64,000 bases of DNA. Source: Obrimoposthia wandeli (lineage: Eukaryota). Shown one piece after another: positions 7,119 through 52,490 of the stretch. Within the stretch, counting starts at the first letter, position 1; every line of letters starts with the position of its first letter. Location: the NCBI GenBank assembly GCA_977020255.1, contig CDROCS010001137.1:248001-312000 (forward strand), written 5' to 3'. Made by a program: the position numbers and the translations under genes. Under the pieces are notes generated by a model that was given only the letters and a program-made list of their open reading frames with translations, ran no database searches and was not told the DNA's origin.

Positions 7119-7217
7119 TGTTGTTTGAAGTCTTGTTTTAATATTCTATAATCCGTGAAACGGCAGAATTTAAATATATCTTTCTCCAAGCCATCTTGGA
7201 TTTGCGATTTGTCTACA
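7119..7217 (+). repeat. 5' LTR (99 bp)
   Basis: TGTTGTTTGAAG...GTCTACA; about 96% identical to 15971-16069. Confidence 0.9.
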
Positions 7218-7230
7218 AGCTATTTCGGCT

Positions 7231-7799
7231 ATGAAGGAATTGGAGAGCATCAGCATTTTCGATGGGACGTCGAATGTGGATGAGTGGATTAGTGAGATCA
7301 AAATGAAAACTGATCTGCTTGGACTGGAGAAAAAATTAAGTTCAATTATTCCGTTGAGAATGAAAAGTGAAGCCTTAATGATGTTTATGAATTTAGAAGA
7401 AGACAAAAAGAAGGACGCATAATCATTATGAAGCGATTATGAGATACCTATGGGATGGGTCAGCTCGAGGCGTTTAAACGATTCAGTCAAAGAAAGTGGC
7501 ACCTCGGAGAATCAATCGATCGGTTCGCGTCAGAATTGAAAAGTTTGGCATCAGAGATCGGTATGGGAGATAATATTGTGAAATTGGCGCTAGTCGATGG
7601 CCTGCCTTCAGACACTTCAGAAGCTCTGGAAATTTCGACGAAGTGTGGAAACTGTTCCTTAGAGCAAGTTATAGCTGAAGCCCGGGCTAGGATGATGAAA
7701 CAAATTGGAATTGAAGGTATCTTCCAAGTTGGAGCTGTTGCAGCTCATCATAGAAAAAGAATAATTAGTTCAGGAATCAAATGCTTCCGATGTAGAGAT
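7231..7799 (+). pseudogene. gag: gag (capsid-like region plus first half of CCHC knuckle)
   Basis: FDGTSNVDEW...; KCFRC is cut at 7799 and resumes GDEGHVSRN at 14608. Confidence 0.85.
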
Positions 7800-9329
7800 A
7801 GTAGGGAGATGTGATGACTTCGACTTAAGGCAATAGATCACCCCTTGCGAAAACTTAAAAAAATTTGGTGCAAATTTCAAAACTAAAATTTTAAGGTCAA
7901 TGTCAAAAGTAGGTCAAGGTCATTATGTGGGTCAAATTTCTCCCAAGTACACATTATATTTTAAGGTCAAGGTAATTTTAAGGTCATTACGTACTATAGT
8001 ACGTCTATTTTCAGCTAATGTTTGTTTAAATGCATCAATTTTGATTGGTGCGTATTCAAATTTCGGTTTATTTAGGGTGTTTCTTTGAAGTCGATTTCTG
8101 AAGGTCATTCTCAATTAAGGTTATAATTTTTAAATTTGCATATGATTTTAAAGTCAAGGTCATGACCTACTATTTAAAAAAAGTTCTTTTGTTTTAATAC
8201 ATCAATTTTGATGCGCGCAAATTCAAAATTCAAAACTTTTGCGCACAAAAACATATTTTCTGAGAAATTTTTTGTAAAACCTATTTAAAGAAATTTTAAC
8301 TACTTTTATTTGAGAGTAGAAAAAAGTTTTATAAATTGTTAAACTGACTTTTTTATTTTTTAAAACTTATTTTGTGTAATTGAATCTACTTTTATTTGTG
8401 AGTAGAAAACGTTTTTGTAATCTTAAGGTATTTATTACACATAACTTGCAAAAGTACATTTTTAAACCTATGAGTTAATTAAAACAAGTATTGAGAAATA
8501 AAGAGAGATTGTAAAGAATAATTTTTATTAAATATACCTTCATTATCTTACATTGTTATCATACACCATCATACGATCTTCATCATCTCTTTACAATATC
8601 ATAATTTTCATTACCCATATCCCTCATCATCTTCATTATCACAATCTTTCTTCTCATCAATTCAATCCTTCAGCTCCATGTTGTTTTCGTCATAATCCAG
8701 CATCTAATCTTCATTTCATCAATGCAATCCTTTATCGCAATCATCCATCTTGTCTTCATCTTAATCCGACATCTAAGCTGCATTATCACAATCCTCCATC
8801 TTCTTCAACATCCTCATCTAAAAATAATTATTTACAAAATAATTATTACAAACTTACCTGGAATCTAACATCAATTCATTAATTCATCTCACCATCTTCA
8901 TCTCATCAATGTAATCCCTCATCGCCATCACTCATCTTATCTTCATCCTTCATCTCATCAGAAATTATGTGTTATTTAGTGATTTTGTTATATGAGATTT
9001 GTGATATTCTAAGATGAAATTACCTAAATGTCTATCTTTATAAATATTTCTATCATAAAAATAGGATTCATGATTATAATCAATAATTTAGCTGTAACAC
9101 CCTCCGATATAATTCCACTTTTAAGTCACAGTAATTAATGGTAAAGATAATAAGAGTATTAGCGGTCAAGCTGTTTGGGTAATTTTTGAAATATCAGTTT
9201 CCCCATACTTGATAATTGATTTATAGTATATCTCTGAAATTGATCTAAGACCGTTGAAGTATCAGTTATATCTAAATATTCTGTCATTATTCGATAATTT
9301 ATATATAGATATAATATCTACTAAATAAG

Positions 9330-10822
9330 GAGTCTCTGAAATTGATGAGTTAGAAAGTATTACGAATTATAGGAAAATGGTTAAACTGGTGCTAAAGTGA
9401 ATTATTAATAGACTTATATCAATATATAAGAGAAAGTTATGATATTTAGCTGATTCTAGAAGAGACATTAATGATATGATCAGGAAATTTATGATATCTA
9501 ATCCGGTCCTAAAGTGATTTATTGATAGGCTTATATCGATATTTGAGGAAACGTTATGATATTTAGAAGCTTCTAGAGGATAAATTAATGATATATTCAG
9601 GAAATTAATGACATTTAGCTAGTTCCAAAGGATACATTAATGATATGTTCAGGACATTTATGATATCTAATTGCTCTCAAATGGTCTATTGATAAGTTTA
9701 TATCAATATATTTATGAAATTAATGATATTTAGATGATTCTAAAGGGAAATTCATAATATATTCGGGAAATGTATGATATCTTCGGGAAATCTATGTTAT
9801 CCAATCCGCCCCAAATCGTTTATTAATAGGATTATATCAATATTTGGGAAAAATCAATGATATTTAATTGGATCTAAGGGTAAAATTAATGACATGCTCA
9901 GGAAATTAATGATATATTCAAGAAATTAAAGATTTCCCTAGGAAATTCACATTATTTAGGTGCTTCTAGAGGAGAAATTTAGAGAACAGCATACATTGAT
10001 GGAGTGTGTATTTGATTCAGTTTAATAGTCTTATTGAAAATTTAACCCATATGATGATATCAGTGACTGTTCTCTAATCAATAACTTCCAACAATATGCG
10101 ATCAATATGATGGTGAAAGTTTGAATCTCTTAAATTGATTTATTGGATGTACCCGCAGATGAGTTTACAACAAGAATACCTTCGATGATATAACCTCTCA
10201 ATTTCTCATCCAAGTAAGATATTATCATAGGTTTGAGCGGGCTTTCCTATCCTTACAACTAAAAGACCGAAAGCTATTATGGAATTGATCCCGGTATGCT
10301 GCTTCAAGAAGGTATTTGCGGGTGAAGGACATTTATCGACCAACATTACTAACTCTGAGGGAGATTCTATTTTGACAAGGTCTCAATTTTCACCGGTTAC
10401 AGATTTTCCGGGTAACTAATCAATTAGATAGAGAAATAATTTGTGAGCTCTACACATTGGATGGAAGTAGATGAAAGTATCCCGAATGAATTACATGATA
10501 TACCTGAAAATCTTAGAAAATAATATTGGAAGAGTTTATTATGCAAAGAAGACTGCTTTGATCATTTTGCTTGCAAGAGACTATAAAAAAGAAATTAGTG
10601 ATACTTAGGTATTTCTAGAAGCATTAATGTTATATCTAGGAAATTTACGATATTCAGATGGAAGATATAAGAGAAAGTAATGATAATGTTCAAGGAAAGT
10701 TATGATATTTAGCTTGTTCCAGCAGTAGAATTAATGTAATAGCCAGGAAATTAACGATATTTAGATGGTTCAGGAAGAAACATTAATGATTTATTCAGGA
10801 AATCTATGATATTTAGATGCTT

Positions 10823-10868
<46 letters not shown>

Positions 10869-11460
10869 ATCAGCGCAAGCTAATGACTTGCACTTACTAG
10901 GGATTCCTCGTTCATGTGGAAAAATTGCAATCCACAATTCCTGATACGACAGTGTTTCAGCAGGTTACCCGGCCATTTCTAGCAAGGATAATCAATGGAT
11001 AATCCCATCTTCGGGAAATCAATGTCATTTAAGTGGTAAGATAAGAGAAACTAGTGATATTTAAGTGATTCTAAAAGAGAAATGTATGAAATCTTCGGGG
11101 AATCTATGGTATTTAAGTGCTTCTATAAGATAAATTATGATATCTTCAGCAAATCAACAATATTTAAATGATTATAGAAGAGAAATGATTGATATCTTCA
11201 GCAGATATATGATATTTAAGTGGTAAGAGAAGAGAGACTAATGATATGTTCAGGAAATTCATGATATTCTGATGGTTCTATAAGATAGTAATGATATCTC
11301 CGGGAAATCTATGATATTTAATTGGTTCTAAAAAAGAAATGTAGGATATCATCGGGAAATCAATGATATTTAAGTGCTTCTAGAGGAGGAATTAATGATA
11401 TGTTCATCCAATTTGATATATTTAGAAGGTTCTTGGGGAATCATATTGGAATTTTAACTC
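9330..11460. repeat. Degenerate ~55-60-bp tandem satellite
   Basis: Recurrent unit like TTCTAGAAGAGAAATTAATGATATGTTCAGGAAATTTATGATATTTAGATG, interrupted at ~9980-10560 and by the 18S piece. Confidence 0.8.
10821..10988 (-). rRNA. 18S rRNA fragment (near the 3' end), orphan
   Basis: Reverse complement contains GATTACGTCCCTGCCCTTTGTACACACCGCCCGTCGCTACTACCGATTGAA, universally conserved in eukaryotic SSU rRNA. Confidence 0.97.
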
Positions 11461-11569
11461 ATTATCCAAAGATTGCTACAGATGAAGGGTAGATTTCATA
11501 TATATAAGCCCGCATTAAGGGGAACTAAGGATTTTGATTATTATAAGGCATTTAAGATGATTAGAGGGT

Positions 11570-12095
11570 AATTTTGTGGATGTTAGGAAAGTCTTGTGGA
11601 ACTTAGGGTGATCTTGTTGTTGATCGAAAATTTCTGTGCTAGTTGAATGGTTTAAGAAGAGGAAAATAACATGGAAGTTAGGGTAATCTCGTTGTAGTTA
11701 GGGTAATATTGTAGTAGTTAGGGAATTCTCGTGGAAGTTGAGAGGTTTAAGAAGGAAAATAACGTGGAAGTTAGGATAATCCCATGGTAATTAGGGAAAT
11801 CTCGCGGAAGTTTAGAAGAAAAAATATAATAAGTATTAAACTTTAAGGAGAGAATAGCATAGAATCAATGAAATCAGAGCAATATCAAGCCTACCTCTTT
11901 CATCAAAGCAGACATAATGATGGATATTTTTAAATAACAGACATTATTTAGCTTTACTTATACATCAATTTTTATTGATTGAAATATTCTATGTTGCAGT
12001 TGTTTAAAATATTATACGTTGTAGTTGTTTAACTTTAAACATTTTGTTGTAAAAACTAAGATATTAATACTTTTGAGTTAGGGTTAGGGTTAGGG
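11570..12095 (+). repeat. Telomere-like repeats: dispersed GTTAGGG-containing units plus (TTAGGG)3
   Basis: (TTAGGG)3 at 12078-12095; gttagggtaatc / gttagggaattc / attagggaaatc units at ~11570-11800. Confidence 0.6.
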
Positions 12096-14607
12096 TGTAA
12101 AAAGAAAATATTTGAAGTTTTATAAGAATGAATCTAATAATCAATAAATCGCAATATATCTATGCATATCTTCTAACATGTCTTTCATGAATCTTCTTTC
12201 AAAACATTTATCCTTAACTTTCAGAGAAATCACCAAATACCATAAATTCATATATTACCATACATTTTGATTATTGAAAAACTGAAATTATCAATATTAT
12301 CAATATCTAATCTCACTATCATCAACCATCATAAAGTGGCTGATAATAGGAATAATGATTTTTCTAATATGTCATTGAGATTTAGAGTATAAAATGGGTA
12401 ACATAGTTAAATATGGAGAAGACTTAGATGTTTTGAAAGTTAAATTGAAAGTTAACAGATCCTATATACTTTAATAAAGAATCTTATACCCAAATTATCA
12501 ATAATACACATATTTCATCTATATTATAACACATGTTGTAAATCCTAATAAAACCTTAACAATAAAGTATGTAATTCATCATAAGTATTTTATTTATTCA
12601 TTTATTCTATTGATTATTGAATCTAGGAGTTGGGTTTAATATTTCTAAATATAGCTTAGTTACTCACCATTTTATTAAGATATTAAGATATTACTAACAT
12701 TTCATGAATCATTTAATTCAATAAAAATCAATATTCCCATCAATATACCCTTAACTTTCGGACCTCTTATTAACTATTAATAAATATAAAGGAGAAAATA
12801 CATACCTTTATTTGCTAATTCCATTTTTTTTTTGCTAAACATGAGTCCCTAATCCACTGACTCCGATCTTGTATATTCCATTGTAATCCAGTTGAGTAGA
12901 CATTGATCCATTTATATTTCGGAAAATGACATCATAATATTGAATTTTGGTTCTTGTAGGTGATAAATTGATTTTTGAGTATTTGATCGATTTTTTAATA
13001 ATATCAGTAATTTTCCCATCAATATATGAAATTGAAAGGCTTCTGAGAAAATGCATATCTATGAAAAGTACGGGGACGTTGCCATAAATCAGCTTGCATG
13101 TTTATTTAAACAAATCTTCGTTTATATAAAACTGAGACTCAGATTAACCAATAAGAATAGATGATACAATGTTACTAAAAATAGATTATTTTTATAGGGT
13201 TAAGAAGAGTGAAATTTCGTGGTGCTTAAGATGTTTAAGGAGAAGAGAATTGGGCTCAAAGTAAAGGGAAATTATCTGATGGTTAAGATGTTTAAGAAGA
13301 GAAAAATAGAGAAATTAACGATATTTACAGGAAATTACGATATTAAGGTGGTTAGAGCATAAATTCGTGAGATAATACATCAATATTAGGGTTAGGGTTG
13401 CATTGATGAAATAAAGATTATGCTGGATTATGAAGAAAACAACTTGGAGCTGAAGGATTGCATTGATGAGAAGAAGATTGTGATAATGAAGATGATGAGG
13501 GATATGGGTAATGAAGATTATGATATTGTAAAGATATGATGAAGATCGTATGATGGTGTATGATAACAATGTAAGATAATGAAGGTATATTTAATAAAAA
13601 TTATTCTTTACAACCTCTCTTTATCTCTTAATACTTGTTTTTATTTACTCATAGGTTTAAAAATGTACTTTTGCAAGTTATGTGTAATAAATACCTTAAG
13701 ATTACAAAAACGTTTTCTACTCACAAATAAAAATAGATTCAATTACACAAAATAAGTTTTAAAAAATAAAAAAGTCAGTTTAACAATTTATAAAACTTTT
13801 TTCTACTCTCAAATAAAAGTAGTTAAAATTTCTTTAAATAGGTTTTACAAAAAATTTCTCAAAAAATATGTTTTTGCGCGCAAAAGTTTTGAATTTTGAA
13901 TTTGCGCGTTTCAAAATTGATGTATTAAAACAAAAGTACTTTTTTTAAATATTAGGTCATGATAATGAAGATGATGAGGAATTTGGAGTAATGAAGATTA
14001 TGATATTGTAAAGAGATGACGAAGATCGTATGATGGTGTATGATAACAATGTAAGATAATGAAGGTATATTTAATAAAAATTATTCTTTACAATCTCTCT
14101 TTATCTCTCAATACTTGTTTTAATTAACTCATAGGTTTAAATTTTAAAATTTCTTTAAATAAGTTTTACAATAAATTTCTCAGAAAATATGTTTTTGCGC
14201 GCAAAAGTTTTGAATTTTGATTTGTGCGCATCAAAATTGATGTATTAAAACAAAAGTAATTTTTTTAAAATATTAGGTCATGACCTTGACTTTAAAATCA
14301 TATGCCATTTTAAAAATTATAACCTTAATTTAGAATGACCTTCAGAAATCGACTGAAAACACTTAAATAAACCGAAATTTGAATACGCGCCAATCAAAAT
14401 TGATGCATTTAAACAAATATTAGCAGAAAAAGGACGTACTATAGTACATAATGACCTTAAAATGATCTTGACCTTAAAATATCATGTGTACTCGGGAGAA
14501 ATCTGACCCACATAATGACCTTGACATTGACCTTAAAATTTTTGTTTTGAAATTTGCTAGGGTGGGGGACCTATTGCCTTGAGTCGAAGTCATCACATCT
14601 TCTTACT

Positions 14608-15960
14608 GGAGATGAAGGCCATGTTTCTAGAAACTGAAATGTGGAAGAAAAATGCAGATGCTACATCTTTAATATAGTTGGTCACTTAGCGCCATTATGT
14701 CCCTAATGAGAATCAAAAAACAACTAAAGGAGTCCGTATGCGCCAGGAGTTTGATACTGTTCAACGCGTCTTGATTTTGGACTCGATGTAGCTCCAAAGA
14801 TTATGTCAGCAATCGTAAGGAAGATTTTGTCAATGGATCAGACAGTGGAGAGTGGAACGGATTCTTACGTATATGATATAGCTGTTAATGATTCTTACGT
14901 AGATGATATAGTTGTTAATGATTCTTACGTATATGATATAGTTGTTAATGAAGGAGTAGTATCTATTGAAGAGGTTATACATATGTTATTAAAGTACGGT
15001 TTGGAATCGAAGCTGCCATAAAAGCTGAATTGTGGTAGAGTGCTGGGACTGCGAATTCATAAAAACAAAAATGTGATGGTATGGAAGCGCGAGAATATAC
15101 TGGCTAAAGTGAATGACAATTTAACGCGTAGGCAAATTTTTCTCATTGCGGTTAGATGATTGGACACTTTCCCAAAGCTGGATGGTTGAGACCGACGTGT
15201 AGTTATTTGAAAATATTGACAAACGGTACTAATTGGGAAGACAACGTCGAGAGTAACATCGTTGAAAAGCTAGAAGAAATTGAGGAACGTGTTTCGGAAA
15301 ACGATCCTGTGCGAGGAGTCTGGAGAGTGACTGATACGATTGAAAGAACAGTATGGTGTGATGCTAGCAGTCTTGCAATGGGAGTCGTAGTGGAAATTGA
15401 TGGTTCGATAGTTGAAGACTTCAGTTGGTTGCAGAAGGAAGATGACTCCTCTCATATCAATTTGGCAGAGTTAGAAGCAGTTGTCAAAGGACTTAATTGT
15501 GCGATCAAATGGAGGCTGTCGCGAATTCTTGTTTATACAGATTCGTCTACGGTCCATGGCTGAGTAAAGGAAATTACATCGGGAGACAAACGAGTAAAAA
15601 CGCATGGTCTTGGATCGGCACTAGCGCATATGTGAATGAATCTATTGAAAACCATAATAGAAGAATGCAGACTAACTGTTAATATCAGGCTAGTAAAGTC
15701 AACAGGAAACAAAGCTGATGAGCTTACCAGAGTGTCCCAAAAGTGGCTCAATCGTGCAAGCGTGGCATGCAGTAATGTAATCGGCAATGAAGCAGAAATA
15801 TTGGCAGTGCACAATCTGAATCATTTTGGTGTTGACAGAACAGCCAGAGACAATTTTGAATGAATGAGAAGAAGAAGTCGCTTCCGAGGGTGCCAGAGAA
15901 TGCCCACAAAGGGCCGTAAGGCGACTGGCCTATTTAGAAGACTATGTGTGATCTAGAGAT
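14608..15960 (+). pseudogene. pol: gag end and deleted pol (RT, RNase H, integrase stub)
   Basis: Second knuckle CYIFNIVGHLAPLC; RT core; RNase H motifs in ORF 15156; protease and most of the integrase are missing. Confidence 0.85.
14860..14949 (+). repeat. 30-bp x3 in-frame tandem repeat of the RT YxDD motif
   Basis: DSYVYDIAVN / DSYVDDIVVN / DSYVYDIVVN. Confidence 0.95.
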
Positions 15961-15970
15961 CATGGAGCAT

Positions 15971-16069
15971 TGTTGTTTGAAGTCATATTTTAATATTCTA
16001 TAATCGGTGAAACGGCAGAATTTAAATATATCTTTCTCCAAGCCATCTTGGATTTGTGATTTGTCTACA
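15971..16069 (+). repeat. 3' LTR (99 bp)
   Basis: See 5' LTR. Confidence 0.9.
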
Positions 16070-35830: not shown

Positions 35831-37091
35831 TTAAAATCGTTCAACTAATTTAGATAGTTTTTCATTATTTATGTTTAAGTTTTGTATGGTTTTTCAATAG
35901 TAGGTTCTTCAATAGGCTCAACAATAATAAGGTCAATATTAGTCAAGTAAATAGACTCAAACGTAATAATAGGTCCATTTAAAATTGACTTGGAAAAGCT
36001 ATCACATAGACCCGGAAACTCATTATCATTGTCAACAATCAATGAATCAATGAAATTTAAAGTATTTGGGATTAATTCAGGTTTACAACTACCCAAATCG
36101 TTATTTATTTGTCTTTACAAACAGTCTTTTTACGAGTAAACATAGTTAAATGGGTTTTATTTCAATTATAAAAATCAGAATAAGTCAAAGATATGTAACT
36201 TATCTTAAAACGGACAAATGAAACGTGACTTATATCCATAATATTTCTCTGATATAGTTTGGCAAGAAGAATTTTATACACCACCATTTGTAGAATAAGA
36301 ATAGCTGCTACATAAACCATTACAACCTCTACCGCGGACATCAAAAGTCCGAGGAAAGACATGAATTACGGAACCATCTTCTAAAACATCGTCTATAATG
36401 CATTTAGATCAAAGACAATACCATTTTGGTTAAAGTAAAGGTTAGTTGACTTGAAAATGGTATGAATTTTCATAACCAAGTCCCTAATTTTGCGTTTAAA
36501 GCTTGTAATAAATTCCTCGCTATGACCTAATGGCGTCGTGTAAAACGGATTTTAAGTCATTGACCCGTTTTTATTTATGACGGAAAATTTTCCGTGTTTA
36601 CCATTTAATTTCAATTGTCTCAAGTCGATTGAATCAACATTTCGTTTGAATTATCTAAAATATTGCTTGAAGGGTCTATCATTTATATCACGGTTTTTAA
36701 TAGATCTGGCAGCTATCACAATTTTCTTAGAGTAGGTGGATGTGTCCGATCTAATCCACACCCCTCCCCCCACTGTCCTTTAAAACCGAGCATGTGTGTG
36801 GAGTGAAATTTCGTGCATGTGTGTGGATTGAAATTTTCTACCCACCCCAAAACTCATAAAAACTAATTTACCCCATATAACACCCTTTAAAATTGAAAAT
36901 CTCATAGGGCTCCCAAAAAAGTGAGGAAGGTCCTGAGAGGCCGTCTGGTGGCGAGCAATACATATGCAGAGTCGCGAAAAAATTTTCCTTGTAAGAATTT
37001 ATATTCATACATATATGTACAGGGTCGCAAATTTTTTTAAAAATCATCAACTACATAAATTGGAAATGATTTCAACATTTTCATTTTATTC

Positions 37092-37265
37092 GGATGAGTT
37101 ATCGTTGAGTCATAGGATGAGCCATCGATGACTCATAGAATGAATCATCAATACCTTAAATGATCTTTGACCTCATGATAACCTTAAATTACCTTGACCT
37201 AATGATGACCATAAATGACCTTGACCTAATGAGGTCATGACCTTAACTTGACCTTTAATGACCTC
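37092..37265 (+). promoter_or_regulatory. Subterminal motif cluster: 5 phased TGASTCA-like sites and about 8 TGACCT half-sites
   Basis: TGAGTTA 37095, TGAGTCA 37106, TGAGCCA 37118, TGACTCA 37129, TGAATCA 37141; TGACCTTGACC and AGGTCATGACCT at ~37165-37265; function inferred only. Confidence 0.45.
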
Positions 37266-37601
37266 TGGAAAAACATGTACGATCAAGAAAATATTAGTAT
37301 TTTAAATCCAAATATATACATGTATTCAAACATCAACAAAAATTAAGAAAATTCTATAAATTATTTAAATAATACGTTCTCATTGGACGTTGAACTTAAG
37401 CAACAAAAACTTAAGAAAATAATACTATTCGCATTCAAACGTAGTTAAAAAATTGATAAAAGCCTATGGATTTTTCAAATAAATTATTTGAATAACCCGC
37501 TTTCATTGGACGACAAAAGAGGGCTAGTCTGTTGTTTTTTGTATAAGGAGATCTCTTTTCATTATTTTTCATTTATCAAAATCAAGAATCAATAATCAAG
37601 A

Positions 37602-39462
37602 ATGCCTATTTTCAACAACGTTGACCTAGACGAAGAGATGGAGGTTCAACTATATGGGGATCTCTCTCCAGTACAAAAGCGAACGCCACCACAGCGAACG
37701 CCATACATTGACTTACTTAGTCAAGACTCGTCGGTGGTGAGCGAAGGAGACGAAGGAGAAGCAGCAGCAAGAGCGGAGCTGTTAAAAGAAGAAGCACCAT
37801 TGGCCAGCTCAACTCCAAGAGAAGAACCAATGAGCGTGAGATGTGGGGTACAGAGATCCCAATATATCGACCTGACTAGTCAGAATTCGATTGAGAATTG
37901 AGAAGACTGTACTCCCAGGCAGAACACAAAACCCACTCGTCCAGCAACTTCAGCAGTAGCAGCAAGGAGATCCAATATCTTCGAGAATTTTGAGGCGGCA
38001 ATCAAACGACCCTGGAAATTGATTCCACTGTCTGGGCCGGAGATAGTACTCGCACCAGACTCAGATGAGTAGCTATTCACCGATGACATTCCGTCGGATG
38101 GTGAAGAGGACTTGACTCCATTCATCGATGAATGAATACAGCCAAGTATCGGAGCCCCAGGAGTCAACGATTCAATGGTGGCAGAATTAGACGAGGACGA
38201 GTGGCGCCTATTCACCGATGATTGGGATGGTCTCACTCCCTCTGCAACACCAACTCCGATAGCCGACAATACGGTGCCTAATCCGTTCAGAAGGCCACAA
38301 TCTCCGATACGTCCTGTTAGGAGAATAAAGGCGACAAATGAGGTTAGTCTATTAATTTATTTAAAATGTTTTTTAATTTCATTTTTAGAAACTTCAATTG
38401 GATTTGGCACCGTCAGTGACCACAGCGGAGAGGCTGATTGAACTGCAGTACTTGGCGAGTCAATGTAGCCAGGATAATCCCAGGAGTGAGCACCGATACC
38501 TACCGACTCCGGATAAATTTGAGGTAAATTATTATAAATTAGTTAATAATTTTAATTATTCACATAGGAAGCCGAATTGGTAGAGAAAATTTTGGAGGAG
38601 GCAACTCTCAGACTACCCATCGATAGGAAACAAGCAGTGGTTAAGAAACCTCGACGCCATCGAATCAAAACCCACACGGTCCATCGGAAGAAGGCCAAGT
38701 TGGCGAAACAGGCTAACCTGCTCGTCATTGAGGTAAATTATTTATATATTTAAATTTCATTGATGTTTTTTGTTGCAGGAACCAATACAATTAACTGAGG
38801 AGAGATGGTGCAAAATTTCTTCTTTTTCGCAGGAACCCGTCCGGATAACTGAGGAGACTTGGGGAGAAATTACTTATTTTCCCAAGAAACGGGCGAAGCG
38901 AGCAGAGTTGAAGAAGACGAGGAGCTCGAGAAAATATAGCACCTCAATTGGCCATTATTCTGAGGCGGTGATTGGACAGCAGGAGATTCTCCCATCTCCA
39001 GTGGACGACGGTCTAATTCTATACGAGAGGATCCCAGTCTCACCGATCGAGATTAGTCTGCCATCAAGTCAACGACGCCTGCAGGAGACATCACCGGCTT
39101 CTCCTCGTCCAACAACCAGCCAGAACATAAAGAGGGCCTGGAATGAAGCTGGATTGGACGAATTCCTGGCGGAACTGGATACACCGGCAATGCTTCCAGA
39201 TTCGCGAAGGCAACAGGATGCCGTCTCACGCCAGCTTCAGCGTGAGAAGGAGGAGAAACAGAAGAAAGCTCCGCGGAAGAGAAAGGCTACTGCTTCTATG
39301 TCAGGGCCATCAACATTGGCTGCACCTCCCCCCAAAACGTTGCAACAACTATTGCCAAAACCTGTGGGAAGGACAATTGCTGCAAAACAACCGGTGAAGC
39401 CGAAAAATACCGGGCCGGCCAAAGAAGAAGGATCCAGTACCGCTTTCTCCAATAATACTTAG
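37602..39462 (+). pseudogene. Spliced Polinton accessory gene, ~574-aa disordered acidic/Pro-rich then basic protein
   Basis: Exons 37602-38342, 38389-38523, 38568-38732 and 38779-39462 joined by GT-AG introns of 46, 44 and 46 nt (all phase 0, GAG|GT); three in-frame stops at apparent Trp codons in exon 1. Confidence 0.75.
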
Positions 39463-39982
39463 TCGGAGGGATTTCGATGAGGATGATCCCAATGAAGACT
39501 TTGTAAAGATTTTTAAGAATATAATTTATAAAAATTAATTTCAAGTGTTTTCTTTTTAATATTTATTTAAATACCATCTTTAAGTTTATTAAAATATCAA
39601 GATGAAAAAAATAGTTAATTTATTCGACTGTTTTTGGATTAATAAGGAATCATTTAAATTTTTTTAGATTTAAATATAAATGCAATGATTAGTTCTAGAT
39701 TTATTAAACTTTCATTTGATACATAAAAATATATCATTTAATTGCCTGTGATTGGATTAAAAATATCTTAAATTTATATATATAGGTTCAAATGTAATTT
39801 AATTTCTAAATATTTAGGCATGTTTACATTTAATATAATTTATTTTAATATTCATAGGAGAATTGACAATATATACCAATCTTAACATGAAAGACTGAGT
39901 ACTTTGTTATTTTAATAAATTTTTGATTAATGATTTTTTTATTAGTTATAAACAAAGGGATTTGCTACAAATTTGGGTAATT

Positions 39983-40467
39983 ATGCAGGAATATATCATA
40001 GATTTTGAGGCTTACGTTAACAAAAATGATGATTATATTATAAAAGAATTATGTATTATGGATGTATGTGACGTTTTTTCATCCTTTGCATTTCATATTT
40101 CAAATATATATCCCGTTTAAAAGGTTAGATTATAAGAAAAAATTTACTAATTTATATCTAACTAAATATTTCCATTTATTAAAATGGAAAGAAGGACATA
40201 AGGCTTTTTGTGAAATATGTATTTTCAATACAATAAAATCTAATTTTGATATAGAAAATGGATTTTTTATGTTTTAGATGAAATGGATGGCAAAAGTATA
40301 AGACTTTAAAAAAATATTTTCCCAAATTGAGGTTGAATACTTTAAATATTTCATGTAATCATCTATTAAAAATTCCACGAAATATTTTCTGTCCATATCA
40401 TAGTCATGGTGACCATTGCGCATATAAAAAATGTTTAAGTCTATCTTATTATTTGACATGTAGATAA
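39983..40467 (+). pseudogene. DEDD-like nuclease-fold protein of Polinton (frameshifted)
   Basis: IIDFEAY...IIKELC; LHFIF...FHLLKW.EG; C-terminal CPYHSHGDHCAYK. Confidence 0.55.
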
Positions 40468-40704
40468 ACAATTCTTCTAATTGGAGAAATACATTATTTA
40501 AAAATTCGATTTTTCATAGAATTACAAATAAGCCTTTTAATTGGAGGAATAAAAATAATATTATCAACCAATAACAGATAAACAATCCTTCTCAGTGGAG
40601 GAATAAATTCAATTTTTTAATCCAATTGGAAAAGAGCATGTGTGCATAAATTTTAGTATATAAGCAAACACTTTCTTCATTTAAATCCCCGACAATTTGA
40701 AATA

Positions 40705-43700
40705 ATGCCTATGGTAAGAATCTATATTTATTATTTCCTTATTAATATTTATTATTTCAGATTACTTGTATCCTGTTTCCAGCCTATTGTGGTGCTTCGG
40801 CGTTATCACCTATAACCTATTGTGGTGTTTCACGGCCAACAACAAGAAGAGGGATATCGTCCAATTGGTGCGCGATTCGCAGGCCGCTCGAGCTCCACCT
40901 CCATTTACAGTGGCGGTCAGTCTACCAGTTTATGGTCCTGCCATTGGTCCTTCTCTCCCGGCTCCTGATTCTGCTACTGCCCCATCCACTCAAATGTCTA
41001 ACAATGAGTGGATGAACGACATCTCCGAGGAAGATTTTGAGGAGTTGGCACGAGCAACCCAATTCTCAAACAATGACTGGATGCGAAATATCACCCAGTC
41101 AGATTTCGAGATAGAGCAGCCTCAGTGGAGCGATAACTCATGGTTGGAGACCATCGAGGAATCCGATTTCGTCGAGTCAACGGTCGACAGCTGGATGGAT
41201 TCCATCAATGAAGAAGACTTCATTCCAGTTCAACTTGGATTGCCTTCATTAGGTATTTTTTATTATTATTTTTAAATTATATATTTTATTTTTTATTATA
41301 TATATTTTATTTTTATTTTTTATTCAGGAAATACCGTTATACAATCGTCCTCTGCTACAACAGATATGCCTCCATCATCGCGAGTGCCTACATCGATGTT
41401 AGCACGCCTAAGAGGTAATAATTTTTAAAAATATATTTATTTTTTAATATATTTATTTCAGCAGCACTAACCTCTACAACATCCGCTTCTTCATCGGCAA
41501 GGTCAGCTTCAAATGCAGCCTCTACAACTACCACTGTCTCACCAACATCGGCAGCACCTGCTACAGTAGCCCCTTCAACACCAGCTACGATTGCCTCAAC
41601 ATCGGCAGCATCACCAATAGCAGCACCTTCAACCTCAGCTGCGATTGTCTCAACTATTAATATAAATAGTTGTCTTCCCGTTCAATTAGGGGGAGATTTG
41701 TCAGCGACAAACGGAAGAAAGAGGCGAGGCCAATTTCTTAATAAGGTCCCACCCAAAAAACGTAGAGAAAACGGTGCTACTATAGAGTATCACCTAAATA
41801 ATAAATATGTTATAGTTAAGGTGCCATTAGGAAATGAAATTTTATTAAACGTAGGTGTAGATTCAAATATTGAAAATCTTTTAAAATCAGAAGTGACTAA
41901 ATTAGGACAGGCTAAGGTTCAATTTTGCGCAACAGTGCAGTTTAAAAATGTCAATGAGGAAACTAAAACTTGGGTAATTTCACATAAAGCAACTGTTTTC
42001 TATGATAATTTTGTAACTGAAATTGGAAGAAACCTGGATGAAAAAATTGCTAATTATAGCGAGTTAAGTAGTGGATGGACTCTAGTTAGAATTCACGATG
42101 TTAGCTTTGTTCTAACAAAGTTCACTGACATGATATATCTTTCGGGGAGTTCATACATTCCTTCACCTAGATCTCTTCAACTTTCACGTTCCATTGTTAA
42201 CGTACAAAACAGTGATAACCTTTGCTTTCTGTATAGCGTGTTGGCCATCCTCAAAAGGGGTGTAATTACTGAGCATAGAGAGCGTGTCAGTAAATATACC
42301 CATTTTTTAAATGAATTGCAGTATCATGGAATACATTTTCCTGTTAAATTAACTGCGATATCAAGATTTGAACATCTTAATAACTTGAGTATTAATGTAT
42401 TCAAATATAATACTGATATCCCAGTTAATGTAACAGATGAAGAAATATTTAAAAATCCTTTTGTAGATGTAATTGATAGGAGCAAAAATGAGGGGACTCA
42501 GGTCAACTTAATTTTGCTCGAACAGAATAATAAATTCCATTATGCTGCAATTCCCAGTTTAGATCGTCTTCTAAATTTAGATAATGGAGCCTTACCGGTT
42601 AGGATAAGGTGTAAGTGGTGTCATAGATGTTTGCATGGATTCCGATCCGAGCTCTCTTACAGCAAACATCTGACATTATGTTCACTGAATCCTGATGACA
42701 ATACGCTATATAGCATGCCTAAGGATAAGGATTTAAAATTCAGGGATTGGGCAAAATGCATACCCGTGGAATTCAGGGTGTATGCAGATTTTGAGTCAAT
42801 TTTAGCATTGCACGACCAGTATGAGAGTATTCACCTACCGGCTTCGGCAGGACTACTATTCTTAGGCCCCAATATTACCCAGTATCATAAATTTTCCGGT
42901 CCAAATTGTATTTTAGATTTTATTTTAAAATTAGAGGAATTAGGAACAACAATTGTCAAACCGTGGTATGATCTCAATGCTCATCAAGCAATGATCATGA
43001 CAGGCATAGACTGGGTTAATTTTAATTCTTGTAGATTATGTTATTTGTGTGGAACCCAGTCTAAGTTAGTCAGAGATCACGATCATGTTACGGGGCGATA
43101 CTTGGGAGCGGCGTGCAACCTCTGTAACCTTGGCCGTCGTTTCCCTAAAAAACCACGAATTCTCATCGTGTTTCATAACCTCAAAGGATATGATTTGCAT
43201 CATATACTTAAATACGCGTTGGGTACATTAAGCTCTTGGGAAATTTCATGTATACCTCAAACTTCAGAGAAATATTTATCTTTAACTGCATATACTGAAT
43301 TCTGCAGTTTAAGATTCATAGATTCTCTGCAGTTTTTGAGTGGTTCTTTAAAAAAGTTAACGGCATCTTTAAATGCATGGCCAATTACACAGTCAGTGTT
43401 CCAAGCTTCGGTTAACGATAAGGAGATTTTTCCGTATAAATTTCGAAAACATTTGCAGATTTAGAAAATACAACTGAAATCCCACCAATAACTGAATTTG
43501 AGGGTGTAAGTCTTCAAGACTATAATGAAGCCCGTACATTTTGGGCGAATAATTGTCGAAATCTTTTAGAATATATGCTTTATCATATGAAGTTAGACAT
43601 TTATCTTTTAGCTGATCTTTTTGAGTCCTTTCGTGTAAAATCTTTAGCAGAAGATGTGCTAGATCTCATGCATTTCTTTAGTTTACCTGGTCTTTTATGG

Positions 43701-45040
43701 GCAACAGCAATAAAAACTCTTAAAATTAATATCGAGTTACTGAAAGATCCCGCGATGTATCAAATGTATGATTATGGTATACGCGGTGGAATGAATTTTT
43801 TCAATAAACATCATGTTGTCAAAAATCAATCCACGGAGATTCTGTACATCGATATTAATAATTTGTATGGGTGGGCGCTTACTCAACCTCTACCTCATGC
43901 CAACTTTAAGTGGGTTTATGATGTTGATCAGTTGATACAGTTTCATCCGACGTCGGCTATTTGGTTGAGGTGGACATAAAAATCCCTCCCAATGTGCATG
44001 ATAAATTAGATGATCTTCCAGTAGCGCCTGTTCATCAATGCCCACCTAATTCAAAGGTTAAGAAATTATTGTTAACCCATGAAGACAAGTTGAATTATGT
44101 TGTGCATAGGCGGCTTCTTCAATTCTACTTAAAGTTGGGAGAGAAAGTTACTCGAATTCATCGTGCTACAAGCTTCAGTCAAAACTTTGTGTTTAAAGAC
44201 TATATTGAGAAGAATTCAAGAAAACGTAATTGGGCCACTAGCAAATTCGATCGAGATTTTTACAAGTTAAAAAGTAATAGTCTCTTTGGAAAAACTGTAG
44301 AGGACTTGCGGAAACGTATTTGCCTACGGTTTTGCAATGATGAGCGTAAACTAATAACATATACTAGCAAGTACAACTTCAAGCGTAGTTTTACAATTGC
44401 AGAAGACTTGGTAGCAGTGTTATTAGGAAAACAGAGTATTTGTCTCGATCGACTGAGTTATATAGGTCAAACGGTTTAAGACATTTCTAAACTCAGAATG
44501 TATGAGCTTCAATACATAGAATTGGAGAAATACCGACAAGAATTCAATTGTGAGATCAAAATCGCGGCAGGGGACACTGACTCTTTCTTTTTAGAATGTA
44601 AAAATGTTAGTTTAAATAATCAATTATTACCAGCAATGTTTAGGGACAACTTACTAGATACCCATAAATATCCTGCTAACCATCCTCTACACTCTATGAG
44701 TTTAAAGGACATTATCGGGAAATTTAAGGATGAAAGCGAGGGACAGGTTTTGTATGATGATTGTATTTTCCTACGCCCTAAATGCTACAGTTTACATGCA
44801 TCTAATAATACATGTTCAATGAGAGCAAAGGGTGTGGGAAGAAACAATCTTACACATGAGGCCTACTGGAAGGTTTATGATACTGGGTGTATTGAAAGCG
44901 TTGAGCAAACTAGATTTATTTCAAGAGCCCATCAACTGTATTCCCATAAATCAACCAAAATCAACTTGAGTATTAATGACGACAAGCACTTTTGGGTAGA
45001 AAAGAACGCTAGCCTGGCTTATGGACACTTCCGAATTTGA
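40705..45040 (+). pseudogene. pPolB: Protein-primed DNA polymerase B with spliced N-terminal extension (frameshifted)
   Basis: ExoI YADFES, endonuclease VII-like RDHDHVTG..CNLCN, ExoII FHNLKGYD, PolA YIDINNLYG, PolB KLKSNSLFGK, PolC AGDTDS; introns 40714-40760, 41253-41327 and 41415-41461, the last two splicing in frame into ORF 41698; frameshifts or stops at ~43464, ~43960 and 44479. Confidence 0.93.
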
Positions 45041-45303
45041 ACGGTTTTCATTTTTTGATTATTTTAGTTTAGTTTTTTTAAATTTTAGATCCCTATGGCA
45101 CCTTGACTCTAACTTTTTGTTATTTCAATACATTTTTTAAGATGGACCTTGTTTTTGTTGACAGATCTCATTGTGATGTTGTTTTTAATAAATGTATTAA
45201 ATAAAATTTGTCTTATGTCTTTTATTATTTTACCTTATATTTTTTAGGGATTTAAAAAAGTAATTCAAAATAAAACATTAAAAATATTTATTTTTATAAC
45301 ACA

Positions 45304-45678
45304 CTAATCTTTTTGCAACGATAACCATAAAATACATAAATGTCCACAGTTTCTCGTCGCAGGATCCTGATATTGTATCTTGTTGTAAAATACTCTTCTT
45401 CGTCCTTTTTGAATGGTTGAAACAAGTTTGTGTGGATAATACATTGCAAGTGGATCAAATACATGTATTGTCCACTCTCTAACATAAATAGCTATTCAAT
45501 GTTCTCCTGGTAAATTCGAAGTATGAGTATTGATAATGTAACCTCCAGATGGAAAAAATGGGATCATATAAATTGGATAAACTCCATTGAATTTATCACC
45601 CAGGACCTTCTCTGCTGATTCTTGTACTGAACTAAATAAAAATTAACAAATATAAATTTAAAAAATGTCTTACTTCAT
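45304..45678 (-). pseudogene. Adenain-like cysteine protease with a 5-nt first exon
   Basis: ATG AA | 42-nt intron 45673-45632 | ...INTHTSNLPGEH*IAIY...FDPL...YNKIQYQD...NCGHLC; catalytic His/Asp/Gln/Cys pattern; the stop is a Trp codon in the copy at 33640. Confidence 0.9.
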
Positions 45679-45679
45679 T

Positions 45680-46910
45680 CTATAATATGACAGTTCTGTT
45701 TTTATTGATTTGTATTTACGAATCAAACACTACGTAAATAAGTACCGTAGTAGGATGTGTTAAAGCTGCATTGAACTTAATTTCTATTCGTAAATTTTCA
45801 TCCTTTGGTAGTTGGCATTGGTTTATATCAAAGTCTGGTGCCAAAACAAATGTGAAGAATGGGCAGCTGCTTTTAAAGTCAGTGAAAGAAATACCATTGT
45901 TTATATTTTTATCTAGTTGGCCCAAATTCCGAATAATAGATTGCGTATAAGCCAAAGCATAAGCGTTACCTTCGAAATCTGTTTTATATGTTTCACGATA
46001 ATCAGTATTTCTTGAAAGTGTCACTGAACATACATTAAGATTGTCAAATTGAGTTGCATCTGTCGTATAATTTCCTAGAAACTTTGTAATTTATTTGAAA
46101 ATAAATTAAAATGAATTTCGGTAATCTTACATCACCAAAAATTTGATCCTTATTAAAAGCTTGTGTACCTGTACCTAAAGAATAGGATATAAGTTTAGTT
46201 TCTCTAATAGGATAACAAGCATTGTTTTTTTCCATTCCTATATTATGTGCCATTAAAACTGATTGCTCGGTTTTAACTCTTCGGACATATAATTTTGCAT
46301 CCAAAATATCAAGTCTAGATTTTAGAACGTCTGTGCTTATCAAAGAAAAATTCCATTTATTACGTTTCAAACGAAGATGTACATTAACACCGGGAATTAA
46401 ATATTTCGGTTGTTCAAAGAAATTCAATCTCAAAGACCCACACATTTCGTAAGCTTTAGAACCCGCAATCCATTTTTTGCGAGTTGCAACCGTTTTATCA
46501 TAACCAATGGTTGCCAAATTAGTATTTTGAGTATCAGTACTATAATTCAAAAGACTTTCAATCAAAGCTTTATGAGCATAGGAAGAATTTCCATCTTCAA
46601 TTTTGACATTATTAAGAGTAACAATGGCATCACTAAATAAAGAATTAAAGAGATAATTTACAGGTGTTACATCTGCATTTTCATCTAAATTAGTACCATC
46701 CCGATTTAATACTTTTATTTGAACATAAAGCAAAGTATCATTCAAATCTAAATACTCGCTATTGGAACCATTAATATAAAATTCTAAATCGGTTAAAGTG
46801 GTTCCTGAAACTGAGTTAACTAGAAATATTTCTTCAAAGGAAGCATTATCTACAACTACTTGTGGAAGCGGTTTATCAAAAAGACACATTTCAGTTTTGG
46901 CGCAACTCAT
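45680..46910 (-). pseudogene. Polinton major capsid protein (double jelly roll)
   Basis: LEFYI...YLDLNDTLLYVQIKV; PVNYLFNSLFSD; FFEQPKYLIPGV.V.LRLKR; LYVRRV; LRIEIKFN; frameshift near 46050 and a stop at 45716. Confidence 0.88.
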
Positions 46911-47284
46911 TTTGCAAATATTGTTCCTTCAACTTTCTTACGTTTGTTTATATTGATTTTTTGCTTCTTTTTACTTTTAAATCCACTACCGCCTTGGCTT
47001 TTATTTGATTTACGTTTTCTAATCAAATTAGCAACTTCAGGTAAAACATTATCAAGTTCATCAAGCCCATGCTTCTTAAAAGTTGGTATTAGTTTATTGT
47101 CCTTAGATGAAAGGTAATCCTTTCCTAATTTTGATATAAATCGCCCGAGTCTCTTTAAAAGAGGAAAGGCAAATCTGCTTAATGTTCTAAGCCAGCCAGA
47201 TCCATATTGTTTACCAACAAAATATGGTAATTCTCCACCTTGTTGGCTTTGACTATAAGCTTCAATTATTGGTGGATTCGCCAT
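46907..47284 (-). CDS. Small basic Polinton virion core or membrane-active protein candidate with QxGG motifs
   Basis: Intact 125-aa ORF; SQQGG|EL, KQYGSG|WLRTLSRFAFPLLKRLG amphipathic helix, K-rich tail with SQGG. Confidence 0.65.
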   Translation of the reverse strand: MANPPIIEAYSQSQQGGELPYFVGKQYGSGWLRTLSRFAFPLLKRLGRFISKLGKDYLSSKDNKLIPTFKKHGLDELDNVLPEVANLIRKRKSNKSQGGSGFKSKKKQKININKRKKVEGTIFAK

Positions 47285-48317
47285 TTTGTTTTCTTAAATG
47301 TATTGTTAAACTTGTCTTGGCCCCGTATGTGAAATCTATTAGTTGTCCGGAATCATCTCTAATATTTACTTCAATATTGTTTATAGAAAAGAGAGCAACT
47401 GGAAGATACATTGGTTGATCTATACGCATACCGACAACGTCCCCATCTTTAGTTTCATTTTGAGAAATCCATATTGTTCTCAAAAGTGGAACTCGTTGTC
47501 CTACAAGTGTTGATTCTATTAAATTAGTATAAATATATAAATTATTAACAACATTTAAAGGTTTTGCCTTATTTTTAGCTTTTATGGTTTTTATTGTATG
47601 GGTTTCAAAGGTATTTCTATTTTAACCAAGGTTTTTAGTGAGTTTATCATCAATGGAAACCCGTTTTATGCTGCTATTTACCGTAAACGTTAATTTATCA
47701 TTTAATGTTACACATTTATCCAAATATTCACTACATTCCTTCTGTATTAATTTACATAAATCCACTTCCCTTTCTATTTTATAATATTTTGAAAGCTTTT
47801 TCAGTTCCACTACAGTCTTTGGTCTCGTTTCAAGTAACAACACTTTTGCTACTCTACCAGGAACATTTCTAACCGATTTAGGTGAGACTATATCCCATTT
47901 ATTACGAGCTACTGTTTGTTCACTATAAAAACTGAATAGAAGAGCTTCTTTTTTAGATTCAAAGTTAATTTTAATAACTTGAAGATATTTTAATCGATTT
48001 TTAAATCTGACTTTGTTATTTTCAAATATTACTTTCACTTCTTTATCTATACAATTGTAATAGAATTGTCCTTTACTATCAAACCCGATCACAACTTCAG
48101 TTGTTTTTTCATGATCAACTTCTTTTGTAAACGTAATATGTGAGTTTTTTCTAATAGTAATTGGAGAATAATAAAAAGAAAATTATGTTAAAGCCGCTTC
48201 CCATTCTCCTTGGAGATTTATAGGATTTTTCCAATCGATAATAAAGCTACTTGCGTAATTATCTGGTTGAGTCTTCGGACATCCGTTACTAGGTAAAACC
48301 ATATACATAGATTTCAT
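47262..48317 (-). pseudogene. Polinton minor capsid (penton-like) protein
   Basis: N-terminal MVLPSNGCPKTQPDNYASSF...LQGEWEAAL; C-terminal LYIYTNLIE..LVG..VPLLR...YLPV...INNIEVNIRD..G.LIDF...LTIHLR; in-frame stops. Confidence 0.85.
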
Positions 48318-49397
48318 ATTATATTAGATGCTGATATCCAAGTTGGATATGAATAACCATGCCATTTAACATAGTATTGTTTATGTTTACCGGCACCCTT
48401 AGATTTTAATATTTTTTGAATACAGAAAACGCTAGGTTTATTTGATATTACTTGTAGTTCTTGCTCGTAAAATTTACCGCGAACGATATTATTGTCAGCA
48501 TCTTTAATAGTACACATTATTGGATTACTTTTTTGATCAATTTTACTTATACAAAATATTTCATCGCTCCAATTCTGATCAAAGTTTTTAATAAATGGAG
48601 TAGAGCTAATATTCGAAATTCGAACATATTCGATTTTCTTATATTTAGCTTTTTAATATTTTTTTTTATTCCTGTCCATCCAAATATCCATAGAGTTTTC
48701 ATTAGTAACATCAACAGGTCTCATTCCCTTGAGACCTCTATGTTCAGAGGGATTATATGCATGTATTATTTTAGGTAAAACTTGGATACATTTATTATTT
48801 CCTTCTTTTGTGAAATACCTTTTTATTCGATCTCTTAAAGTACGATTAAATCTTTCTACTACTGCTGCTTTGTACTGTGAAAACACAGATTAGTGATTTA
48901 TATTATTTTGTTTAAATAATGATTGAACTTGCTTATTATAAAATTATTTTCCTAAATCAGTTTTCACATTTTGTGGAATGTCCTCTTTTAATATTTCTTT
49001 AATGGCTTCAAGCATAGCTATTGAAGACTTTGCTTTAACTGGAATTACACGAGCAAACCTGCTAAATACATCAATACATGTTAAAATATATCGATATCCC
49101 TTATTAATGGAAGAATATGGGATCATCTCCAACAAATCCATTTGCCATAAATTATTAGGACCGCTGGTTTTATAAGCTCTAGTTGGAAACCTTCTTCTCA
49201 TCGGCTTGTTCAGACTGTAGGCTAACTGGTTGCTCAGCCATTTATGCGTTTTCTTGTAATTTTGTTTTGTTCTTTTTGCCAATTTTGAAACTCTGGTGTA
49301 GCCAATTGGATCTTTTGGATTGAAGCATATCTTCTCTATTACAACAATTTGAATAGAAAGAAAATTTAAATTTAGGTAAAGAAGGGTTAGCACCCAT
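48314..49397 (-). pseudogene. Polinton DDE integrase with chromodomain-like C-terminus
   Basis: LWQMDL, YILTCIDVFSRF, KTDLGK*FYN, KAAVVERFNRTL, YYVKWHGY; possible ATG G micro-exon plus 58-nt intron. Confidence 0.92.
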
Positions 49398-49425
49398 ATC
49401 TTTAGCTGATTTTATAAATAATTGT

Positions 49426-50597
49426 TTATGAATGTGTCGCAGCTATAATTATACTGATAATTGAAGCAACAACTGGAATAACAGCCTCTAGGAAACCACC
49501 ATTCTGTTTAAGAATAATATTTCGTTTCCTTTTTTTACTTTTTACATTAGCAATATCTAGAAGAATTTTTCTATATTTCTTTAATTCATTTTTCCGTTTT
49601 CCAACCTTTACTCGACCCAAAACTATATTATACAAAACTTCCAATAAATCAACTACAACAAAGGATGGAAATGTTTTAAGAATAATCATTCTCTTATGAG
49701 AAGAGGCTTTGACTAAAGCAGGGTTTCTCAACGGGGGCCCTGGGGCCCCCTGGGGGGCCACACAATTTGCCAGGGGGGCCACACGAGCCAAACAACAAAA
49801 AAAAAATTAACACCCCTGTTTTCACTGGGTTAAACACTTCGATGGCTGCACACGTGTGCCACAAATAAATGTTTGACATGGAATAAAAACAGAGTATAGA
49901 CTTCTAGATACATATGGACGCGACGCGTCAACTTATTGTGTGGGCGTACCAGCCCAATGAGGGCCGACGGTAAAACATCATAATATGCCTTAGCAAAAAT
50001 ATCATCGCGCTACAAAAGTTTGTGTGGCGGATGTGGCATGTGCATAATCATCATCCTGAGTAATCTATGGACTAAAATCAGTAATCGTGTTGTGTCTCAG
50101 CGTGTGAAGAGAAGAGTGTCACACTTCATGTGTACATGCCCAAAATACGCTGCCATTGTAAAATGCTACCTACCTAACTCACAAACGTGCACTTGTGTTT
50201 GTTTTGAATGAGTCAGTGGTTGATTTCTTTCTTCTTGTTTGTCATTCACCATATCTGAATGTACACACATAGGACCTTGTTTTTCTAATTGTCTTTTTGC
50301 TCACGTTACCCTTGTAAACAATTGCTCCAGATTTCACTACACTTGTTGGCAAACGCCAAGCGCAAGGGTCACACTAACATTTTGTAAATATAGTTTTCTC
50401 ATTGATTATCTTTTTGAATGTTTCCATGACAGAATAGTATAATTGAAAACTATACGTATACGATGTAATCTTTTTGTCCATAGTAGAGGGGGGCCACAGC
50501 AATTTGCTGCAAACTAAAGGAGGCCGTGGTGAAAAAAGGTTGAGAAACCCTGGACTAAAGCTTTAAAATAGGGTATGCTTCTTTGTATTTTCTTCAT
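49426..50597 (-). pseudogene. Basic QxGG protein (adenovirus protein X/VII-like candidate), disrupted by a MITE
   Basis: MKKIQRSIPYFKALV [MITE] KASSHKRMIILKTFP...KQNGG|FLEAVIPVVASIIS; homologs at 16990-17330 and 55879-56211. Confidence 0.75.
49719..50552. mobile_element. hAT (Buster/Charlie-type) non-autonomous element, 834 bp
   Basis: TIR CAGGGTTTCTCAAC...GTTGAGAAACCCTG; perfect 8-bp TSD GACTAAAG with central TA. Confidence 0.95.
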
Positions 50598-50773
50598 TTT
50601 AATAAAAAAGGTTCAATTTAAATATTGTTTATATTCGAAGCCATTTAAGTTTTTTTTTATTTCTAACTACAGATTTGAATAATTTTTTCACTTTTATTTT
50701 CTTAATGATTTTTTTTTATTCCTTAGGCTTTGCTTTACGTTTTACTATCAACTTTGTAAAAGGCATTGTAAAT

Positions 50774-52487: not shown

Positions 52488-52490
52488 TAA

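Follow-up and report, generated by a model that had tools for sequence, protein, structure and literature searches.

A gene-less 6.8-kb element with Polinton-type ends in the genome of Obrimoposthia wandeli

The DNA analysed here is a window of 64,000 nucleotides from Obrimoposthia wandeli (GCA_977020255.1, contig CDROCS010001137.1, positions 248,001 to 312,000 of the forward strand; all coordinates below are counted from the first letter of the window). Within it, an element of 6,808 bp with AGT...ACT termini (7800..14607, no strand assigned) contains no recognisable gene and interrupts a retrotransposon. From its sequence the element is likely to be a non-autonomous, Polinton/Maverick-dependent unit for whose integration a Polinton integrase acted in trans and which has kept only the cis signals. 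The terminal sequences, a target-site duplication (TSD) of 6 bp, the presence of a similarly old Polinton elsewhere in the window and the lack of coding relics all point in this direction. They uphold the core of an initial annotation of this DNA, which had described a gene-less parasite of Polinton-type machinery; its further proposals, that the element moves rRNA sequence and may be packaged in virions, were not supported.

The boundaries proposed in that annotation, namely AGT...ACT termini, a 6-bp TSD with one mismatch and a split gag CCHC knuckle, were confirmed. AGT stands at 7800 and ACT at 14607, and the flanking hexamers are AGAGAT on the left (7794..7799, plus strand) and GGAGAT on the right (14608..14613, plus strand), which agree at 5/6 positions. 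A length of 6 bp fits better than 4 bp (2/4), 5 bp (1/5), 7 bp (0/7) or 8 bp (4/8), and a match of at least 5/6 between flanking hexamers is met by chance in 0.6-0.7% of pairs. When translated, the left flank ends in KCFRCRD and the right flank begins with GDEGHVSRN followed by a stop, which we take to be the two halves of a CCHC-type gag knuckle. The element entered by a staggered 6-bp cut into a retrotransposon gag gene. The split host is a relic of the long terminal repeat (LTR) type (7119..16069, plus strand) with gag to the left of the element and a DUF7047/RNase H region on its other side. It is enclosed by 99-bp direct repeats (TG...CA, 7119-7217 and 15971-16069, 4 mismatches) and is still matched by Pfam (E 1.8e-12). 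Its pol region also carries a 30-bp tandem repeat (14860-14951, 3.1 copies, 95%). The window as a whole has a GC content of 32.7% and is densely filled with decayed mobile elements; its short AT-rich introns, R2-like element and Polintons would suit an invertebrate animal. From 25 to 34% of the sequence words of 7200-15200 are present in four sequencing runs (one sample of one study, none of them RNA), a count that records the presence of words only.

The link to Polintons starts at the termini. The left terminal 14-mer (7800..7813, plus strand) is identical in 12/14 positions to the end of a Polinton in the same window, with a chance of 1.8e-6 per site, and the right one (14594..14607, minus strand) in 11/14, as expected from the earlier remark that the first bases resemble an autonomous Polinton end. 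This Polinton, a candidate for the helper type, spans 17.3 kb (36731..54041, no strand assigned) and encodes pPolB and an rve integrase, its genes being broken into several open reading frames (ORFs): Pfam matches to DNA_pol_B_2 lie in three consecutive ORFs and a match to rve in a further one. It has terminal inverted repeats (TIRs) of 107 bp and a TSD of TCTTAG/TATTAG (5/6), so that both elements have a 6-bp TSD with a single mismatch. Three related Polinton scraps are found at 3829-5857, 16918-17663 and 33004-33891, the first two of which still have their right end, with the same motif at its tip. When at least 12/14 identity to the Polinton end is required, four matches remain on both strands of the window, and all are element ends (7800, 36731, 54041 and 17663). 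It is probable, judging by sequence, that the left 14-mer is an integrase/origin site. The cis features of Polintons/Mavericks are all present: an AG...CT end motif (both ends start with AGTAG/AGTAA, as do the local Polinton and its scraps), a 6-bp TSD and TIRs, here of 932 and 1,214 bp. The exact vertebrate motif, (AGT)2 or (AG)3, is absent from the termini of the element and from those of the local Polinton. The comparison covers one Polinton and its scraps, and beyond the shared tips the sequences are unrelated; as the agreement ends some 14 bp into the element, the actual helper may be a Polinton other than this one.

The TIRs form long, unequal arms. The left arm (7800..8731, plus strand, 932 bp) consists of segments A-B-C-D-E, whereas the right arm (13394..14607, minus strand, 1,214 bp) reads inward as A-B-D-B-C-D-E, the surplus being an extra B (14144-14283) and an extra D (13960-14141). 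In BLASTN the inner parts of the arms are 96% identical and the outer parts 86%, with indels. Over A and the inner B-E, 42/894 columns carry substitutions, a divergence of 4.7% (confidence interval 3.4-6.3). The three B copies and the three D copies are 2.8-5.0% apart, so that the duplication is of about the same age as the insertion. Between the arms lies a non-palindromic interior of 4.7 kb.

The arms had been regarded as otherwise unrelated to the Polinton. Indeed, no alignment extends beyond the tips, but one further feature is common to both. A cluster of eight AGGTCA/TGACCT hexamers (7894..8168, plus strand), including the palindrome AGGTCATGACCT at 8157, is mirrored by seven hexamers in the right arm (about 14275-14533), and a counterpart of eight lies in the Polinton (about 37168-37264). 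The density of AGGTCA is 15-16 per kb in both arms and 14 per kb in the left 570 bp of the Polinton, compared with 0-0.3 elsewhere in the window (Poisson P about 1e-11 to 1e-12). Of the 12-bp palindrome the window has three copies, one per arm and a third in the left region of the Polinton. A local alignment of 37 columns scores 37, against a maximum of 34 among 40 control regions. We assume AGGTCA to be a nuclear-receptor-type motif; our literature search on AGGTCA-type motifs in repeats found nothing relevant. Relatives of the Polinton capsid and integrase, which might have told whether such clusters are general in this Polinton group, were not found in viral contigs.

That the interior holds no recognisable gene, as first noted, is borne out. 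The Pfam scan (E<=1, stops read as X) gave no match in any of the 18 frames of 8500-9400, 9940-10620 and 11800-13390; it was directed at these three non-satellite stretches and left out the satellite blocks and 11420-11800. In all five ranges compared, the longest open frames and the stop counts resembled those of shuffles (lowest p 0.057). A tblastn comparison of the element, without 10801-10999, with the Polinton at 36731-54041 yielded no match, while each of the three decayed Polinton scraps, used as controls, gave 16-20; nor did the element match the rest of the window in tblastn. Accordingly, these searches found neither the protein-primed PolB and retrovirus-like integrase that characterise autonomous Polintons nor their capsid, ATPase and protease genes, and the 6.8 kb fall below their usual 13-25 kb or so.

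Several stretches were considered individually. The unique spacer at 9980..10590 (no strand assigned) contains no gene that we could find, and the 214 codons of its candidate frame P0002 include 18 stops. We rejected a decayed gene at 9960-10601, to which this frame would belong: there was no Pfam or PHROG match and the stop density was that expected by chance. The single library match of P0002 was P0003 (E 1.7e-4), a repeat protein of 1,671 amino acids with a score summed over weak stretches and a best pairwise value of 27 bits, and a PDB match of P0002 to a 247-residue Vibrio protein (E 7.9e-5) was not reproduced in larger searches and is taken as chance. In the unique AT-rich stretch at 12096..13300 (no strand assigned) the longest open frame has 88 codons (12838-13101, minus strand; p=0.057 versus shuffles). 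A minor-capsid relic was discarded here, as the frame did not align with the putative minor capsid ORF of the Polinton and had no homologue among longer proteins (best Atlas score 0.77). Finally, a GAT-rich, internally repeated stretch (8540..8965, minus strand) would read as an acidic peptide. It includes an intron-like piece of 40 nucleotides (8818-8857, GT..AG) with 12% GC between flanks of 36-37% GC, and this piece resembles the 44- and 46-nucleotide intron-like pieces of an apparently spliced low-complexity gene in the left region of the Polinton. The GAT-rich stretch may be a relic of a spliced acidic accessory gene. The host retroelement, although older, can still be recognised, and the same would be expected of any genes that the element had brought along; since, in addition, the arms have diverged little and Polinton scraps are easily recognised, the element was probably already gene-less when it inserted.

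What the interior does contain is satellite, telomere-like and rDNA sequence, in agreement with the initial annotation. Satellite block 1 (9380..9980) has 52-bp units with 63-65-bp variants and a 117-bp higher order, block 2 follows at 10590..10815, block 3 (10985..11420) has seven units of 50-52 bp, and a solo remnant of the 52-bp unit lies at 13308..13373. All units are on the plus strand, spread from 9380 to 13373. Their mean identity is 73% (78 pairs of 13 units) versus 95% between the arms, which indicates that the array had long existed by the time of the insertion. The 52-bp satellite was not found in the remaining 57 kb, and its host origin is therefore a guess. The middle of one satellite unit is replaced by a scrap of about 170 bp from the 3' part of the small-subunit (18S) rRNA (10820..10990, minus strand). 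These limits were read from the sequence and the satellite unit map; the Rfam match (RF01960, 80 bits, E 1.3e-19) is reported at 10872-11051, and helix pairing is kept. Degenerate 20-bp repeats with GTTAGG(G/A) occupy 11565..11800 (plus strand). They are followed by a (TTAGGG)3 tract (12078..12095, plus strand), the sole triple hexamer array in the window, and by a (TTAGGG)2 tract (13386..13397, plus strand), which is one of 17 double arrays and lies exactly on the boundary between interior and right arm. The two tracts, at or near joints, look like repair filler; because the interior also has GTTAGGG-containing repeats, they might instead have grown from one hexamer by slippage.

The view that the element moves host repetitive DNA including rRNA sequence was not sustained. 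A single copy is known, its satellite occurs nowhere else in the window, and its rRNA content amounts to the scrap inside one satellite unit. In addition, a 28S rRNA piece is located 3.6 kb downstream without such an element around it, which means that rDNA scraps also arrive here by other routes.

How a gene-less element of this kind might have come about can be outlined. The retrovirus-like integrase of a Polinton, of this or a related family, would act in trans on the terminal 14 bp or so, as the ends and the TSD suggest. A Polinton protein-primed polymerase would probably copy the element from the same termini, and the arms of about 0.9 kb would fold the displaced strand into a panhandle; a panhandle model of Polinton replication was reportedly put forward by Kapitonov and Jurka in 2006. 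Template switching from one arm to the other would account for the extra B and D in the right arm. Rather than functional cargo, the 18S scrap and both TTAGGG tracts may represent break-repair filler gained during the history of the element. The ages involved are alike: the divergence of the arms (4.7%) is comparable to that of the Polinton TIR (6/105, 5.7%) and of the LTR-like repeats of the host (4/99, 4.0%), and the differences are not significant (Fisher p 0.63 and 1.0). Packaging in virions found no support. The 6.8 kb correspond to about 40% of the size of intact vertebrate Mavericks, which is 16.9 +/- 1.7 kb, and a capsid-related size limit has been suggested by the authors of that work (PMC8097293).

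A number of observations weigh against a Polinton-dependent element. A single copy is known: none other was present in the rest of the window, and the end motif of the element had no match in viral or metagenome contigs. At a threshold of at least 11/14, the window contains 14 matches to the Polinton end, of which six are known element ends and eight are not, and the likeness fades past about 14 bp (13/20, 15/30). The AGGTCA cluster of the Polinton is found at one end only, outside the TIR and mostly in the opposite orientation, and the sharing of this motif is therefore supportive, not decisive. Clusters of the AGGTCA type are also common in invertebrate repeats and hence may not be Polinton-specific. 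Lastly, segment A is more diverged (23/325) than the inner arm (19/569, p 0.014) and has seven indels, which is odd for ends that are expected to be homogenised.

The main alternative, which is rather unlikely, is that an ordinary Polinton of a second family inserted intact, lost its whole gene core in place by one or more deletions and had the gap filled with satellite, telomeric and 18S scraps, in which case it never moved in its present form. Degraded fossils make up 96% of vertebrate Mavericks (PMC8097293), the window holds three other Polinton scraps, and the arms are within the known range of TIR lengths. Moreover, the non-core ends of the neighbouring Polinton sum to about 6-7 kb, and two ORFs tested there had no family-level Pfam match. 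The TTAGGG tract exactly at the arm joint, similar to telomeric repeats inserted during repair (PMC2246262), and the intron-like acidic candidate relic in the left arm would suit this scenario as well. However, at an arm divergence of 4.7% accessory genes should persist as long frames (160-232 amino acids in the neighbour), and none above chance is seen. No scraps of core genes are left either, and the one-stranded, 73% similar satellite units across most of the interior suggest that it has evolved for a long time.

An improbable extension of the Polinton-dependent reading would place the element in a family of ends-only Polinton satellites dispersed through the genome. These would not be derived from the local helper by deletion and would replicate as linear DNA under the protein-primed polymerase of the helper, be patched in this linear state by host break repair with telomeric repeats at the joints and carry captured pieces of rRNA genes to new loci. 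If that were true, the AGGTCA clusters would be another cis signal that satellite and helper share.

More doubtful still is a foldback-like non-autonomous element from a cut-and-paste family with 6-bp TSDs, whose likeness to Polinton ends would be coincidental. Foldback elements such as Galileo typically have long arms that are asymmetric and internally repeated, and the likeness to Polinton ends is indeed lost after 14 bp. On the other hand, the 12/14 end match singles out Polinton-type ends only, within the window. AG...CT ends together with 6-bp TSDs are not known from any other superfamily, and the termini and TSD lengths of Ginger elements do not fit. An assembly artefact or a single-locus inverted duplication, which the initial annotation had named as a possible undoing of its claim, is hardly credible: the single-copy state would agree with it, but the arms are not flanking sequence, the outer ends coincide with the TSD, the Polinton-type termini and the two knuckle halves, and a mirrored read would not give arms with 4.7% divergence, indels and a duplication on one side only.

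Other features of the window deserve a brief description. In addition to its core genes, the Polinton at 36731-54041 has a TBP-like ORF (51763-52101, PF00352, E 4e-10) and an Endonuclease VII-like stretch within the polymerase ORF. An R2-like non-LTR retrotransposon at 18170-21650 has an N-terminal zinc finger and RVT_1, with C-terminal CCHC and endonuclease-like motifs recognised by eye. It is preceded by about 470 bp of the 28S rRNA gene, with no 28S sequence downstream. We presume that this stretch ends just short of the usual R2 site. The R2-like element looks like an rDNA read-through copy that landed outside rDNA. In its 5' region, a 19-mer (18763-18781) resembles the subterminal sequence of the gene-less element with two mismatches; the flanks are unlike, the chance expectation at <=3 mismatches is 0.02, and the similarity is possibly due to chance. 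Just beyond the R2-like element, an isolated AT-rich stretch of 55 bp (21743-21795) is 80% like arm segment C (E 1e-6), which may again be chance. Short inverted repeats (41-45 bp, 82-90%) at 23375-23612 and 30153-30247 are 6.5-6.8 kb apart, with an 80-bp tandem duplication at the left one and a Tc1/mariner-type transposase fragment (26582-26980) between them. A perfect palindrome with 62-bp arms and a 1-nucleotide spacer lies at 30601-30725. At 31150-31926 (minus strand) an intact-looking ORF matches glycosyltransferase family 92 (E 2.4e-13) and is probably a host gene amid debris of transposable elements (TEs). By eye, 2200-2610 reads like part of what we take to be a nucleosome assembly protein (NAP) gene, which interrupts a Gypsy-like relic.

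Gene-less elements with Polinton tips can show which cis signals are the minimum that Polinton integration and replication require; in the present case these would be the outermost 14 bases or so and possibly the AGGTCA cluster. If the interior proved to be shared between copies, Polintons would support satellites resembling defective interfering genomes that are able to move non-coding host DNA, and standard annotation would mislabel the moved DNA as satellite or rDNA. If the element were a single gutted fossil, it would be an ordinary feature of a TE graveyard.

Among known systems, the Mavericks of vertebrates are about 13-25 kb long, end in motifs of the AGT or AG type, produce 6-bp TSDs and carry TIRs of 46-1,447 bp (PMC8097293). 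Our element resembles Polintons/Mavericks in its AG...CT termini, its 6-bp TSD and TIRs of hundreds of bp to more than 1 kb, but it measures 6.8 kb instead of about 17 kb and lacks genes for pPolB, integrase, ATPase, protease and capsid. With the local Polinton its arms align only at the tips and in the short motif cluster. Zebrafish Polinton-1N1 and Polinton-2N1 are listed in Repbase as non-autonomous Polintons that depend on an autonomous Polinton in trans. The Polinton of Anolis comprises 17,487 bp, and non-autonomous Polintons are described as apparently absent from the anole genome (PMC3014272). Tlr1 has been viewed as a non-autonomous Polinton (PMC5499653), and Polinton-N1A_NV of Nematostella, whose name resembles those of the zebrafish elements, has a capsid gene (PMC11296320), so that such a name alone does not mean gene-less. 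Ginger1 and Ginger2 are marked by TGT termini, 4-5-bp TSDs and TIRs of 40-270 bp (PMC2836005), and are thus set apart from an element with AGT termini, a 6-bp TSD and arms of more than 900 bp. In mammalian chromosomes, comparison with empty sites has shown that short interstitial telomeric sequences were inserted at repaired breaks (PMC2246262). The short exact TTAGGG tracts at a joint are similar, TTAGGG being the presumed telomere repeat of the host. In butterflies, Polintons without polB transport TEs as cargo and reportedly remain mobile (bioRxiv 10.1101/2025.02.07.637071), and host genes are found as cargo in Mavericks of nematodes (bioRxiv 10.1101/2022.07.12.499685). Our literature search, for which subscription journals and Repbase Reports were mostly outside the scope, did not find an element with Polinton ends that lacks genes altogether and has rDNA or telomeric filler. 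The butterfly and nematode elements share with ours the Polinton-type ends around foreign DNA, but still contain genes, viral or cargo, or complete TEs, whereas between the ends of ours there are just satellite, telomeric tracts and an 18S scrap. Non-autonomous Polinton derivatives are already recognised, and the element described here is an unusual, ends-only variant of them.

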